Source: a virus. Taken from it: a stretch of 56,556 nucleotides of DNA. The DNA is taken from IMG/VR virus record IMGVR_UViG_3300009529_000009; one strand, written 5' to 3'. Below are positions 1 to 56,556 of this stretch, piece by piece. A program made the position numbers and the translations under genes. The first letter of the stretch is position 1. The number at the start of each line of letters is the position of its first letter. The notes below the pieces were generated by a model. It saw only the letters and a list, made by a program, of their open reading frames with translations, was not told where the DNA came from and made no database searches.

Positions 1-158
1 TGCTTGATCAGCGACATAGCCGTGCGGCCGTAGCTGCCCTGGAGCTTCCAGGCCATGCCGCTCTCGACAAGCTGCCCGAAGAAAACGATCGTCTCCTCCA
101 CGTCCATTTCGCCCTGCTCGTACGTCATGATGTCGCCGACATCGGGCATCATCGTCAT
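1..158 (-). CDS. Mirror copy: 3'-truncated hypothetical protein at window edge
   Basis: Twin of 56399..56556. Confidence 0.5.
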
Positions 159-322
159 GCTGCACTCTCCTCTTCTACGCGCCGGAGCACCGACACGCGG
201 TTGACCGTCATCTTCGCCTCGACCGTCATCCCGACCTCGACCGGGGTCATTGCTTCGTACACCGAGCTACTCGGGCCGAACCAGTACTGCAGGTCGCGGG
301 CCATCTTCTCAGTCATCTTCAT
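155..322 (-). CDS. Mirror copy: small [10 protein letters not shown] protein
   Basis: Twin of 56235..56402. Confidence 0.45.
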
Positions 323-343
323 ATCCGCCTCCTTCACACCTGC

Positions 344-371
344 AGTATACCAGATACGGCTCCCGAGTCAA
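344..371 (-). promoter_or_regulatory. Mirror copy: TTGACT-N16-TATACT promoter
   Basis: Twin of 56186..56213. Confidence 0.5.
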
Positions 372-408
372 CGACGAAGTTGAAAAACTTGTGAAGTTTT
401 TCAACCGC

Positions 409-447
409 CAAAACGGCCGCACCACCAGACAGGCCGGTGGTGCGGCC
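409..447 (-). terminator. Mirror copy: Rho-independent terminator
   Basis: Twin of 56110..56148. Confidence 0.65.
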
Positions 448-555
448 GTTGCTGTACTACTTGCCCGCCAGGGCGACTGCTGCGTCGAAGGCCCTTGCCT
501 TCTCCTTCGCCCGCGCAGCCTCTCCATCTCCTGCATGATCTCCTTGCTCAGCATG

Positions 556-1182
556 CTACTCTCCTCTCACGGCGCACAGCTTCGTCGCCCTGCTGACCGC
601 AGCGCGGAAGCGCTTCTTCGCCTCGCGCCGGGCGCTCTTGACCTCGTCCGTCGGCTTCGGCTGAGCGACCTTCGCCCAGTCCGGCGACAGCAGTTCCTTC
701 TTCGCCTTCTCGGCCTTCTTCGTCGTGACCCGCGCCGCGATCCACAAGTCCCCGTACACGGTTCCTGTGACTTCCTTCTCGACCTTCTTCTTCGTCTCTT
801 CCTTCACGCCCTTGGCGAGCACGGCCAAGCGTTGCTTGACGGGAAGCGCAGCCGCCAGGTTCGCTTCCTGCTCGCGACACTGCAGGACCATGTCGCGCAT
901 CGCCTTCGCCTCGACCGAGTACGAGTCCCAGTCCATCGGGATCAGGCCCTTGCTGACCGCGAGGGTGACCCAGTCCTTCGGGAGCAGACCCTCGGAGACC
1001 AGGTGCTTCGACCACGACCAGTTCTTCGTGCCCTTGCCCATGTCCCACTCGTGCTTGACGCCGCGACCGAGACCGAGGCCGTTGCAGGTGAGCAGGCCGT
1101 GCTTGCCCGACTCGGCACGGTACTCCATGACGGCAGCGCGGAGAGCGAGGTGGGGGTAGTCGCGGGCCATCTTCTCAGTCAT
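556..1182 (-). CDS. Mirror copy: hypothetical protein (209 aa, MTEKMARD...)
   Basis: Twin of 55375..56001. Confidence 0.6.
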   Translation of the reverse strand: MTEKMARDYPHLALRAAVMEYRAESGKHGLLTCNGLGLGRGVKHEWDMGKGTKNWSWSKHLVSEGLLPKDWVTLAVSKGLIPMDWDSYSVEAKAMRDMVLQCREQEANLAAALPVKQRLAVLAKGVKEETKKKVEKEVTGTVYGDLWIAARVTTKKAEKAKKELLSPDWAKVAQPKPTDEVKSARREAKKRFRAAVSRATKLCAVRGE

Positions 1183-1924
1183 CTTCAACCTTCATGGCCG
1201 GGCAGAAGAAGCAGCTCGACTTGCGGACCGTGCGCGAGCCCGTGTAGTCTTCGAGCATGTCGACGAACTCGGGGTGGCTCGCGATCGTCGCGTCGAGGTC
1301 CTCGCGGCTAAGCTGCCACTCGCGCAACGGGTAGCGGTTCTTCCAGTGGAGGAACTTGCCGGACGCCTCGTCCGCCTTCTCGACCTTGTCTACCTTGGCG
1401 AAGCGCTTCGAGTCGGCGCAGCCGTAGTCGTAGCCGATGCAGCGCGTGACACGGACGCCCTGCTCCAGCGCCTTGTGTGCGGGCTCCCAGCCCTCGATGC
1501 CCCAGATCTCGTCCTCGATCGCTTCGATCTTCCACTTGAGGCTGCAGCTGTGGCCACCGTAGGCGAGGCTCGGCAGGCCGTCGTTGTGGAGGCAGTTGCC
1601 TTCGAGGCTCTGGTAGCGGGTGGTCGGGGAGTAGTAGGAGGTGACAGTGATCTCGGGGAAACCAACCGAGCGGCACCACAGGTCGAGCGCTTCGACGGTC
1701 TGCCAGGTGTGCTCGTGCTCGCCGCCGACGTCGGCGATGATGATCAGGTCCGGGCGGATGCCCAGCTCGTGCATGTGGAGAATGCCTGCGGTCGAGTCCT
1801 TGCCGCCGCCGTACGACCAGACGATCGGGTGGGTCCACTCGTTACCTTCGGCATCGACCTCGGTCTGACCGACCTTCGCCAGCGCGATCTCGACGTCCTG
1901 GGCGTTGAACTCGTTTCTCTTCAT
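1175..1924 (-). CDS. Mirror copy: PAPS-reductase/PP-loop family protein
   Basis: Twin of 54633..55382. Confidence 0.8.
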   Translation of the reverse strand: MKRNEFNAQDVEIALAKVGQTEVDAEGNEWTHPIVWSYGGGKDSTAGILHMHELGIRPDLIIIADVGGEHEHTWQTVEALDLWCRSVGFPEITVTSYYSPTTRYQSLEGNCLHNDGLPSLAYGGHSCSLKWKIEAIEDEIWGIEGWEPAHKALEQGVRVTRCIGYDYGCADSKRFAKVDKVEKADEASGKFLHWKNRYPLREWQLSREDLDATIASHPEFVDMLEDYTGSRTVRKSSCFFCPAMKVEDD

Positions 1925-1947
1925 CTTGACCTCCCCTTCGTGTGAGC

Positions 1948-54609: not shown

Positions 54610-54632
54610 GCTCACACGAAGGGGAGGTCAAG

Positions 54633-55382
54633 ATGAAGAGAAACGAGTTCAACGCCCAGGACGTCGAGATCGCGCTGGCGAAGGTCGGTCAGACCGAGGT
54701 CGATGCCGAAGGTAACGAGTGGACCCACCCGATCGTCTGGTCGTACGGCGGCGGCAAGGACTCGACCGCAGGCATTCTCCACATGCACGAGCTGGGCATC
54801 CGCCCGGACCTGATCATCATCGCCGACGTCGGCGGCGAGCACGAGCACACCTGGCAGACCGTCGAAGCGCTCGACCTGTGGTGCCGCTCGGTTGGTTTCC
54901 CCGAGATCACTGTCACCTCCTACTACTCCCCGACCACCCGCTACCAGAGCCTCGAAGGCAACTGCCTCCACAACGACGGCCTGCCGAGCCTCGCCTACGG
55001 TGGCCACAGCTGCAGCCTCAAGTGGAAGATCGAAGCGATCGAGGACGAGATCTGGGGCATCGAGGGCTGGGAGCCCGCACACAAGGCGCTGGAGCAGGGC
55101 GTCCGTGTCACGCGCTGCATCGGCTACGACTACGGCTGCGCCGACTCGAAGCGCTTCGCCAAGGTAGACAAGGTCGAGAAGGCGGACGAGGCGTCCGGCA
55201 AGTTCCTCCACTGGAAGAACCGCTACCCGTTGCGCGAGTGGCAGCTTAGCCGCGAGGACCTCGACGCGACGATCGCGAGCCACCCCGAGTTCGTCGACAT
55301 GCTCGAAGACTACACGGGCTCGCGCACGGTCCGCAAGTCGAGCTGCTTCTTCTGCCCGGCCATGAAGGTTGAAGATGACTGA
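54633..55382 (+). CDS. PAPS-reductase / PP-loop ATP-pyrophosphatase family protein
   Basis: PP-loop IVWSYGGGKDSTAGIL (SGGxDS). GAAGGGGAGG RBS. C-terminal CFFCP. Confidence 0.8.
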   Translation: MKRNEFNAQDVEIALAKVGQTEVDAEGNEWTHPIVWSYGGGKDSTAGILHMHELGIRPDLIIIADVGGEHEHTWQTVEALDLWCRSVGFPEITVTSYYSPTTRYQSLEGNCLHNDGLPSLAYGGHSCSLKWKIEAIEDEIWGIEGWEPAHKALEQGVRVTRCIGYDYGCADSKRFAKVDKVEKADEASGKFLHWKNRYPLREWQLSREDLDATIASHPEFVDMLEDYTGSRTVRKSSCFFCPAMKVEDD

Positions 55383-56001
55383 GAAGATGGCCCGCGACTA
55401 CCCCCACCTCGCTCTCCGCGCTGCCGTCATGGAGTACCGTGCCGAGTCGGGCAAGCACGGCCTGCTCACCTGCAACGGCCTCGGTCTCGGTCGCGGCGTC
55501 AAGCACGAGTGGGACATGGGCAAGGGCACGAAGAACTGGTCGTGGTCGAAGCACCTGGTCTCCGAGGGTCTGCTCCCGAAGGACTGGGTCACCCTCGCGG
55601 TCAGCAAGGGCCTGATCCCGATGGACTGGGACTCGTACTCGGTCGAGGCGAAGGCGATGCGCGACATGGTCCTGCAGTGTCGCGAGCAGGAAGCGAACCT
55701 GGCGGCTGCGCTTCCCGTCAAGCAACGCTTGGCCGTGCTCGCCAAGGGCGTGAAGGAAGAGACGAAGAAGAAGGTCGAGAAGGAAGTCACAGGAACCGTG
55801 TACGGGGACTTGTGGATCGCGGCGCGGGTCACGACGAAGAAGGCCGAGAAGGCGAAGAAGGAACTGCTGTCGCCGGACTGGGCGAAGGTCGCTCAGCCGA
55901 AGCCGACGGACGAGGTCAAGAGCGCCCGGCGCGAGGCGAAGAAGCGCTTCCGCGCTGCGGTCAGCAGGGCGACGAAGCTGTGCGCCGTGAGAGGAGAGTA
56001 G
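55375..56001 (+). CDS. hypothetical protein (209 aa) with Lys/Glu-rich C-terminal half; shares first 10 codons with gene at 56235
   Basis: Begins MTEKMARD. The 29-nt 5' region is identical to 56236..56264. Overlaps the upstream stop by 8 nt. Confidence 0.6.
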   Translation: MTEKMARDYPHLALRAAVMEYRAESGKHGLLTCNGLGLGRGVKHEWDMGKGTKNWSWSKHLVSEGLLPKDWVTLAVSKGLIPMDWDSYSVEAKAMRDMVLQCREQEANLAAALPVKQRLAVLAKGVKEETKKKVEKEVTGTVYGDLWIAARVTTKKAEKAKKELLSPDWAKVAQPKPTDEVKSARREAKKRFRAAVSRATKLCAVRGE

Positions 56002-56109
56002 CATGCTGAGCAAGGAGATCATGCAGGAGATGGAGAGGCTGCGCGGGCGAAGGAGAAGGCAAGGGCCTTCGACGCAGCAGTCGCCCTGGCGGGCAAGTAG
56101 TACAGCAAC

Positions 56110-56148
56110 GGCCGCACCACCGGCCTGTCTGGTGGTGCGGCCGTTTTG
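56110..56148 (+). terminator. Rho-independent terminator GGCCGCACCACC-ggcctgtct-GGTGGTGCGGCC-GTTTTGG
   Basis: Perfect 12-bp GC-rich stem with a U-tract. Followed by the AT-rich palindrome TTGAAAAACTTcacAAGTTTTTCAA (56153..56177). Confidence 0.65.
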
Positions 56149-56185
56149 GCGGTTGAAAAACTTCACAAGTTTTTCAACTTCGTCG

Positions 56186-56213
56186 TTGACTCGGGAGCCG
56201 TATCTGGTATACT
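56186..56213 (+). promoter_or_regulatory. sigma70-like promoter TTGACT-N16-TATACT (TGg-extended)
   Basis: Directly downstream of the terminator and the AT-rich palindrome. Drives the [10 protein letters not shown] small ORF and the next gene. Confidence 0.5.
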
Positions 56214-56234
56214 GCAGGTGTGAAGGAGGCGGAT

Positions 56235-56402
56235 ATGAAGATGACTGAGAAGATGGCCCGCGACCTGCAGTACTGGTTCGGCCCGAGTAGCTCGGTGTAC
56301 GAAGCAATGACCCCGGTCGAGGTCGGGATGACGGTCGAGGCGAAGATGACGGTCAACCGCGTGTCGGTGCTCCGGCGCGTAGAAGAGGAGAGTGCAGCAT
56401 GA
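56235..56402 (+). CDS. small protein (55 aa) beginning [10 protein letters not shown]
   Basis: GGAGG RBS 5 nt upstream. Its stop overlaps the next start (ATGA). Confidence 0.45.
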
Positions 56403-56556
56403 CGATGATGCCCGATGTCGGCGACATCATGACGTACGAGCAGGGCGAAATGGACGTGGAGGAGACGATCGTTTTCTTCGGGCAGCTTGTCGAGAGCGGC
56501 ATGGCCTGGAAGCTCCAGGGCAGCTACGGCCGCACGGCTATGTCGCTGATCAAGCA
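56399..56556 (+). CDS. hypothetical protein, 3'-truncated by window end ([22 protein letters not shown]...)
   Basis: ATGA-coupled start. Open to the window edge. Confidence 0.5.

Follow-up and report, generated by a model that had tools for sequence, protein, structure and literature searches.

A 56,556-base phage contig equal to its own reverse complement is most probably an assembly fold-back at a short natural palindrome

The window analyzed here, a stretch of phage DNA 56,556 bases in length, is one palindrome from end to end. Our reading, which we hold with considerable confidence, is that this giant palindrome is a contig-level artifact, produced when a de Bruijn graph folded back on itself at a short natural palindrome. 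Because the axis cuts a helix-turn-helix (HTH) regulator gene and relatives read through the same site, the giant palindrome is, on comparison with related contigs, almost certainly not a property of the genome, and the real genome is probably that of a roughly 150-kb phage.

The window is a perfect palindrome holding 28,278 bases of unique DNA

Aligned with its reverse complement, the window matches at every one of its 56,556 bases (0 mismatches), and its composition is symmetric (A = T = 11,392; G = C = 16,886). The axis, 28278/28279, is the exact middle of the window, leaving equal arms of 28,278 bases each. The first-pass annotation had described a perfect full-length inverted duplication and quoted its center, and both descriptions hold: the sequence ...CTGACTGACTTGGGAAGCGCATCGG|CCGATGCGCTTCCCAAGTCAGTCAG... 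is found at the junction between 28278 and 28279. Its further claim that every open reading frame (ORF) has a mirror twin and that only about 28.3 kb is unique follows directly, since a window identical to its own reverse complement can contain only 28,278 bases of unique DNA. The mirror arm (1..28278, minus strand) repeats 28279-56556 as its exact reverse complement and adds no information of its own. We therefore describe features on the unique 28,278-bp segment (28279..56556, plus strand), which its gene content and contigs from other samples place in an uncultivated phage with a T4-like portal.

All genes of the unique segment are on the plus strand and directed away from the center. The first is the 3' two-thirds of an XRE-family HTH regulator gene (28280..28573; residues 34-130; partial HTH_3 match), followed by a conserved 317-aa protein (28676..29629) that has no family match and lies 3' of the HTH gene in all relatives. 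Next comes a uracil-DNA-glycosylase-like domain fused to a family A DNA polymerase (29614..32400; DNA_pol_A 1.9e-70, UDG 1.2e-23). Profile and PHROGs matches define a replication and recombination block (33121..40357) comprising an SSB-like protein (33121-34953), a RecA-like protein (35042-36247), a 5'-3' exonuclease (36190-37173), an Mre11-like phosphoesterase (37143-38213), and a Rad50/SbcC-like ATPase (38699-40357). A large terminase and portal region (42250..47130) consists of a large terminase with a LAGLIDADG intein-like insert (42250-45267; terminase large subunit PHROGs, LAGLIDADG_3) and then a T4-type portal (45271-47130; Portal_T4 6.3e-37). No capsid or tail genes, tRNA genes, or Rfam families were found in the 28.3-kb arm. 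A back-translated pattern search of the viral contig collection returned no relatives of the 317-aa protein, exact-protein look-ups of this protein and of the polymerase gave no match, and the window itself had no exact-pattern match in the viral, metagenome, and genome contig collections and no megablast match among GenBank phages.

At the outer ends, the window stops inside a gene, as the first-pass annotation had noted: an ORF (...SLIK) runs off the outer end. The accompanying suggestion that the palindrome probably extends past the window finds no support, given that the axis is exactly centered and that relatives end within 175 bases of the outer end. Two independent contigs of the same phage stop at most 175 bases short of it, and contig end points in this region lie at approximately 56409 (L002/L019) and approximately 56381 (L020). 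By position, the exact centering and the nearby contig ends are consistent with the window being a whole contig that stopped at a common assembly break.

The axis truncates a regulator gene that is intact in relatives

The center of the window cuts the XRE-type HTH gene after codon 32, with the axis falling within codon 33 of what is a 130-aa gene. In place of its 5' 98 bases (residues 1-32/33) stands the mirror arm, in which an in-frame stop occurs at 28259-28261, 18 bases to the left of the axis. The first half of the DNA-binding domain is consequently missing from the gene in the window, whose protein matches HTH_3 only at profile positions 24-55 of 55; in the intact protein of contig L005, positions 2-56 of HTH_31 and 10-55 of HTH_3 are matched. 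Full-length homologues of the HTH protein range from 117 to 131 aa.

Six contigs from six other samples (L005, L008, L010, L011, L012, and L013), assembled by two pipelines, Logan and JGI, run straight across the axis. They are 98.4-99.3% identical to the window, and all six carry the intact 130-aa HTH gene together with the same conserved left flank. Over the unique segment, independent contigs from other samples are 98.4-99.98% identical. A 47.5-kb ENA scaffold is also colinear across the homologous site, as is a related 154.7-kb contig, where the site lies mid-contig at approximately 90 kb. Between strains the left flank is strongly mosaic, and the breaks in several contigs lie 123-261 bases from the axis, which offers a plausible reason for a left junction to be lost.

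The axis lies on the only long spacer-free palindrome in the region

In all six of the crossing contigs, the site of the window's axis is occupied by a 30-bp perfect palindrome (28264-28293) with 15-base arms and the same axis. An alignment of the center (window, L005, L008, and L010-L013) reveals a single base that bears on its length: 28294 is A in the window alone, against G in each of the six, and the G>A change is synonymous (CAG>CAA, Gln). By pairing with the T that the true left flank has at -16, this A (its mirror image in the window is a T at 28263) extends the perfect arms from 15 to 18 bases. The natural palindrome at which the fold-back occurred, ACTTGGGAAGCGCATCGG|CCGATGCGCTTCCCAAGT (28261..28296), is thus 36 bp in the window's strain, a length that presupposes a left flank like that of the six relatives, as the window cannot display its own.

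In a screen for perfect palindromes using 6-base arms, no spacer-free palindrome in 29.5 kb other than that at the axis had arms of more than 7 bases, and the runner-up reached 7. The arms at the axis are longer than any found in 200 shuffles (maximum 11 bases), and the window's axis would coincide with the palindrome's axis by chance about once in 29,500.

The type-2 allele lacks the palindrome, and L009 retains it only as degenerate 10-base outer arms, below the perfect-palindrome screen. Owing to this absence and degeneration, it appears unlikely, from the alleles compared, that the palindrome is a deeply conserved functional element.

A fold-back in the assembly graph as the probable origin of the window

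A de Bruijn graph could generate the window from an ordinary genome as follows. The true genome would contain a short spacer-free palindrome within the XRE regulator coding sequence, 30 bp in most strains and 36 bp here. When k-1 is at most 36, the k-mers at the palindrome axis would be mutual reverse complements and would form an 'inverted loop', such that a walk entering from the right flank would, once past the axis, be reading the other strand. On leaving the palindrome, the walk would have two ways on: into the true left flank, or outward again through the reverse complement of the right flank. Should the k-mers that connect the left flank be missing or pruned, the inverted loop would be the sole edge, and the resulting maximal unitig would consist of the reverse complement of the right flank, the palindrome, and the right flank. 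Such a unitig would be perfectly palindromic by construction, with equal arms, zero mismatches, and both sides ending at the same graph break. Possible causes for losing the left junction include low coverage, strain mosaicism in the left flank, or sequencing trouble at the hairpin.

We examined this behavior in a toy doubled de Bruijn graph constructed from the L005 left flank and the window arm. With the left-junction k-mers absent, the graph yielded a unitig identical to the window, base for base, at k = 31, 33, 35, and 37, and there was no fold-back at k of at least 39. With the G variant, there was no fold-back at k of at least 33; the change at 28294 therefore matters for k = 33-37. The A variant must itself have been present in the reads, because the 'AAGTC' k-mers occur in neither context of a G-type genome. 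Three other computational routes were rejected: a fold-back from a G-type genome predicts C/G at -16/+16, where T/A is seen; a hybrid path joining the reverse complement of the left flank to the right flank cannot account for the A at 28294; and an origin of the window in Logan (k = 31) is excluded, as Logan contigs hold each 31-mer once. The perfect symmetry, the truncated gene, the palindrome at the axis, the relatives that cross it, and the exact unitig match at k = 31-37 are observed, whereas the assembler, its k, and the cause of the lost left junction are inferred. Modern pipelines end at k above 37, so the fold-back would need to have originated at small k and survived, and hence the true left junction would have had weak read support.

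Palindromic contigs of this general kind have been described. Rahman and Medvedev (2022, Genome Res; PMC9528984) found that lonely inverted loops give rise to palindromic maximal unitigs, and that SPAdes and MEGAHIT push through inverted loops, with unsafe unitigs resulting at low coverage. Whole-contig palindromes have been judged assembly errors and removed from both SPAdes isolate assemblies (81 contigs; PMC9455707) and single-cell assemblies (bioRxiv 10.1101/2023.06.06.543983).

Alternative origins

The first-pass annotation had allowed for either a technical or a biological origin and regarded the choice as undecidable from sequence alone. It was sound in admitting a technical origin and in not committing to a single one, and comparison with other contigs discriminates further than it supposed. 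The origin that we consider most likely, a de Bruijn 'inverted loop' at a palindrome of at least k-1 bases, was absent from its list.

Were a physical molecule to snap back at this same palindrome, the contig would be identical, and two such origins have to be weighed. The first, which we regard as unlikely, is in vitro: during amplification (e.g. multiple-displacement amplification, MDA) or library preparation, a displaced 3' end carrying the 36-bp palindrome could have snapped back and been extended, generating recurrent inverted chimeras that were then faithfully assembled. Inverted chimeras formed by template switching in MDA are favored at short perfect palindromes, and the junction lies exactly on one; moreover, the A at 28294 in its right-flank context must exist in real reads, given that graph walks cannot invent k-mers. 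However, nothing indicates that the sample was amplified, and chimeras are normally a minority beside the true junction, so that the graph would still fork to the left flank. The purely computational route needs no extra assumption.

More improbable still is a real inverted duplication in a phage subpopulation, in which a break next to the palindrome led, through intrastrand annealing and fold-back priming or through the processing of a cruciform or hairpin, to head-to-head dimers or snap-back defective genomes. Fold-back inversion mediated by palindromes is well established in bacteria and yeast, the axis lies on a natural palindrome, and the phage encodes Mre11/Rad50-like and RecA-like proteins, which act on such structures. 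Yet the product would lack the left part of the genome and destroy the regulator gene, the outer end of the arm is an ordinary assembly break, not a genome end, 36 bp is short for efficient hairpin-driven rearrangement, and in the six other samples only the normal arrangement is seen. No sequence feature demands a physical molecule. The specific version in which a templated G>A change, by perfecting a quasi-palindrome in the XRE gene (15- to 18-base arms), seeded a snap-back or head-to-head form is equally improbable in our judgment; if true, it would be a natural instance in which one SNP set off a large palindromic rearrangement, in a phage with its own Mre11/Rad50.

The remaining proposals fare worse. 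A long-read artifact is very hard to credit. The contig could, for instance, have been built from PacBio reads whose hairpin adapter went unnoticed or from nanopore fold-back reads of template and complement, both of which are palindromic and may be tens of kilobases long, but they would turn at a random fragment end rather than exactly on the sole long palindrome (the 1 in 29,500 coincidence above), and equal arms with 0 differences in 28,278 bases are unexpected from error-bearing long reads. The missed-adapter or fold-back long reads and the random MDA chimeras listed by the first-pass annotation share this failing, in that both predict an arbitrary breakpoint. Its hairpin-ended replicon, and its head-to-head replicative dimer where a whole genome is meant, are contradicted by the truncated gene, the relatives that read through, the mid-contig position of the site (approximately 90 kb in the 154.7-kb contig), and an arm without capsid and tail genes. 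A linear replicon of the N15 or Borrelia type, whose natural ends are covalently closed hairpin telomeres, would give a perfect palindrome if read around such a tip, and the window's center is a GGCC-centered dyad, but we give this origin almost no credence, since the center is within a coding HTH domain, six contigs and two long scaffolds continue through it, no telomere resolvase or tyrosine-recombinase-like family was found among 27 of the ORFs of the 28.3-kb arm (all large ones included), and the portal and large terminase point to headful or cos-type packaging of ordinary linear DNA.

Consequences for the use of palindromic contigs

The fold-back reading matters mainly for quality control, as the contig needs to be cut to its 28,278 unique bases before it is used at all. 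At full length it would distort gene counts, estimates of genome size and completeness, statistics on duplicated genes, and calls of 'inverted terminal repeats', and it would lead to mis-annotation of the truncated XRE gene. The window also illustrates neatly how a single synonymous SNP can switch an assembler from read-through to fold-back, because the lengthening of the palindrome from 30 to 36 bp crosses a common k value such as 33. We suggest a simple screen that asks whether a contig equals its own reverse complement and whether a short natural palindrome lies at its axis.

Comparison with known systems

One close likeness is to the lonely-inverted-loop unitigs (PMC9528984), in which the contig is likewise its own reverse complement with an axis on a palindromic (k-1)-mer. 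There, however, the palindromic unitig is the correct reconstruction of a true long palindrome, whereas here the true palindrome would be only 36 bp and the 56.6-kb one would arise because the competing true edge is missing. The palindromes removed from isolate and single-cell assemblies (PMC9455707; bioRxiv 10.1101/2023.06.06.543983) also span an entire contig and carry identical mirrored genes; those studies name no seed, whereas for the window we can specify the seed palindrome, its lengthening SNP, and the k range.

Among physical systems, the hairpin-telomere linear prophages or plasmids N15, PY54, and phiKO2 and their head-to-head replicative dimers share with the window a perfect dyad about a short palindromic site. 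Unlike in N15, PY54, and phiKO2, no resolvase was found in the arm's ORFs examined here, and the site is within a gene, mid-genome in relatives, and read through in other strains. MDA inverted chimeras and in vivo fold-back inversions resemble the window in having a junction at a short inverted repeat and an inverted duplication as the product, but both require physical junction molecules, whereas the computational route proposed here would explain all of the observations without them.

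Symmetry of the window and gene order in relatives

The first-pass annotation had read the entire window as one perfect inverted duplication, and direct comparison bears this out: the window and its own reverse complement are identical at 56,556 of 56,556 positions. The axis lies between positions 28278 and 28279, with ...ACTTGGGAAGCGCATCGG on its left and CCGATGCGCTTCCCAAGT... on its right. The unique sequence, put earlier at about 28.3 kb, amounts to 28,278 bases (28279-56556 on the + strand, hereafter the arm), and all ORFs are mirrored, as the annotation had also described. 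Its remark that the window ends inside a gene was likewise correct, since the last ORF runs past the window end; the outer ends fall where other assemblies also stop (the related contigs L002/L019 and L020, within 175 bases).

We retrieved near-identical contigs from other samples through exact-protein look-ups. Six of these contigs, which represent six samples and two pipelines, continue uninterrupted across the axis point: Logan SRR35513634 (L005) and SRR35532206 (L011), and JGI 3300048990 (L008), 3300048840 (L010), 3300060480 (L012), and 3300048055 (L013). They match the arm from its position 1 onward at 98.4-99.3% identity, and they have one left flank in common, with the 32 N-terminal codons of an HTH gene followed by a 182-aa gene and by small genes; farther left, the longer contigs carry a second HTH gene, a DnaB-like protein, a helicase, and a radical-SAM protein. 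Gene order is also unchanged through the site in a divergent strain type (L014-L017, one of them a 47.5-kb ENA scaffold) and in a distant relative, ENA ERZ25073474 NODE_16 (L021; 154,741 bp), which was compared over 20 kb and is colinear there, has the site at about 90 kb, and encodes a 182-aa protein with 58% identity. This colinearity suggests that genomes in this uncultivated phage lineage measure about 150 kb or more. Because the relatives keep their gene order through the site, the centre of the window marks no genome end and no conserved rearrangement.

The axis cuts a regulator gene. The intact homologue in L005 has 130 aa and spans HTH_31 positions 2-56, and the axis falls within its codon 33, so that the window has lost the first two helices of its DNA-binding domain, and a mirror copy of the gene's own 3' part stands in their place. 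In the frame giving ...SQVSQIERGKYEISVALAQKIAKALNVKLSWL..., the Pfam HTH_3 match is restricted to positions 24-55 of 55 and begins right at the axis, and a stop lies 18 bases to the left of it.

A natural palindrome at the axis

All six crossing contigs contain a natural 30-bp perfect palindrome without spacer, TGGGAAGCGCATCGG followed by CCGATGCGCTTCCCA (window 28264-28293; L005 1227-1256), whose axis is exactly that of the window. It lies inside the XRE coding sequence (peptide LGKRIGRCASQ) and is far longer than chance allows: in a 29,519-base reconstruction made of the L005 left flank and the window arm, no other spacer-free palindrome has arms of more than 7 bases, and the arm maximum in 200 shuffles was 11. 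A random turning point would fall on the palindrome axis with a chance of about 1 in 29,500, which excludes missed adapters, ordinary chimeras, and other origins at random breakpoints. The palindrome is allele-specific, being missing from a second (type-2) HTH allele and reduced to degenerate 10-base outer arms in the related contig L009.

Position +16 (28294) is G in all six contigs and A in the window only, a synonymous change (CAG>CAA). On the left side, each of the six contigs reads T at -16, C at -17, and A at -18, so that with A at +16 the perfect palindrome grows to 36 bp. Folding back a G-type genome would leave C/G at -16/+16, but the window has T/A; the A must be a true variant in the reads, since path switching in a G-type graph cannot make A together with the right-flank context. 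Before the change, the imperfect palindrome has 15-base arms, one mismatch, and 2 further pairs; after it, perfect 18-base arms. The G>A change could be a quasipalindrome-templated (template-switch) mutation, whose signature it fits, or equally an ordinary synonymous SNP.

Gene content of the arm

From 28279 onward the arm carries phage genes that all lie on the + strand, the first being the fragment of the XRE-type HTH regulator. They include a 317-aa conserved protein of unknown function; a family-A DNA polymerase (29614-32400, +) that carries a uracil-DNA-glycosylase (UDG)-superfamily domain at its N-terminus, a fusion kept in relatives, and has a degenerate 3'-5' exonuclease region; and an SSB-like protein (33121-34953, +; PHROG 1192, 2.7e-10). 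The latter has a Pro/Ala/Gly/Met-rich low-complexity tail of about 300 residues, then a CPACG...H...C zinc-finger-like motif, and this stretch of the gene is a local GC maximum (0.66). The + strand also encodes a RecA-like protein, a 5'-3' exonuclease, Mre11-like and Rad50-like proteins, a T4-type portal, an HU-like protein, and a PDDEXK nuclease. The large terminase (42250-45267, +; about 1000 aa) has an insert at about residues 140-480 that contains a LAGLIDADG homing-endonuclease domain and is apparently an intein.

A small ORF (49302-49835, +), called as 136 aa in relatives, has at its C-terminal end a glycyl-radical-like motif resembling the NrdD C-terminus (PF13597 positions 531-561). 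Radical-SAM proteins lie about 10 kb to the left in relatives (L010 43-1473; L014 470-1831), and the small ORF may encode a 'spare-part' glycyl-radical protein, with the radical-SAM protein as activase. A 900-aa protein (50967-53669, +) matches the major vault protein shoulder domain (PF11978, 1.3e-17, above cut-off) and a vault repeat, but no PHROG, and is kept in near-identical contigs (895 aa in L002). Vault-like proteins are not usual in phages. The arm contains no capsid or tail genes and is therefore a fragment, not a genome. Among cultured phages none is close, with no megablast hit and portals no more than 25% identical.

Origin of the giant palindrome

Very probably the giant palindrome does not exist in the genome and is a fold-back assembly artefact seeded by the natural 36-bp palindrome. 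An inverted loop arises in a de Bruijn graph wherever a (k-1)-mer is palindromic. Where no edge but this loop is available, the maximal unitig that the doubled graph yields reads as a palindrome; SPAdes and MEGAHIT walk on through inverted loops, and imperfect coverage leads to unsafe unitigs (Rahman & Medvedev 2022, PMC9528984). The window would be such a unitig, the walk folding back at the 36-bp palindrome with left-flank k-mers missing. Zero divergence and equal arms would then be automatic, because the walk would visit one set of graph nodes twice, once for each arm. The window did not come from Logan, whose contigs contain any 31-mer only once.

We ran a minimal doubled-graph unitig walk on the 29,519-base reconstruction. 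With the A variant and the left-joining k-mers absent, the unitig is exactly the 56,556-base window at k = 31, 33, 35, and 37, and ends at the palindrome at k ≥39. With the left flank included, the walk halts at the fork for k ≤37 and passes through for k ≥39, and the G variant is read through from k = 33 up. At k ≤29, unitigs in this toy graph are split by a 29-30-base exact direct repeat, ATGAAGATGACTGAGAAGATGGCCCGCGAC (55369-55398 and 56235-56264, +), whose two copies, 866 bases apart, each supply the opening 10 codons of a different ORF.

A plausible reason for the loss of the left junction is that coverage of the left branch was low or split, given that the left flank is mosaic among strains and contigs break nearby. 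The upstream small gene occurs in 113-, 107-, and 143-aa variants, and the type-2 allele has an extra 160-aa gene in the left flank; several relatives break 123-261 bases from the axis, three of them stopping 123-137 bases to its right. The regulator region itself is mosaic (window 28279-28540; L010-L017), with two HTH alleles and type-2 homology to the arm only from position 261. Samples 3300024433 and SRR11049210 combine a type-2 left side with a right side that matches the window at 99.9% identity.

An identical assembly would result from a physical snap-back at this palindrome; we consider such a molecule unlikely to have arisen in vitro during amplification, and more unlikely still in vivo. 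The hairpin-telomere end of a linear replicon is contradicted by the position of the site, mid-contig (at about 90 kb of 154.7 kb) and in a coding HTH, with relatives continuing through it. Long-read fold-back is contradicted by the odds of about 1 in 29,500 that its random turning point would meet the palindrome axis.

Read as an assembly artefact, the contig is best handled as 28,278 bases from an uncultivated phage that has a T4-like portal and is otherwise ordinary. Whole contigs that are palindromic have been described before and discarded as assembly errors, both from SPAdes isolate assemblies (81 contigs; PMC9455707) and from single-cell assemblies (bioRxiv 10.1101/2023.06.06.543983).
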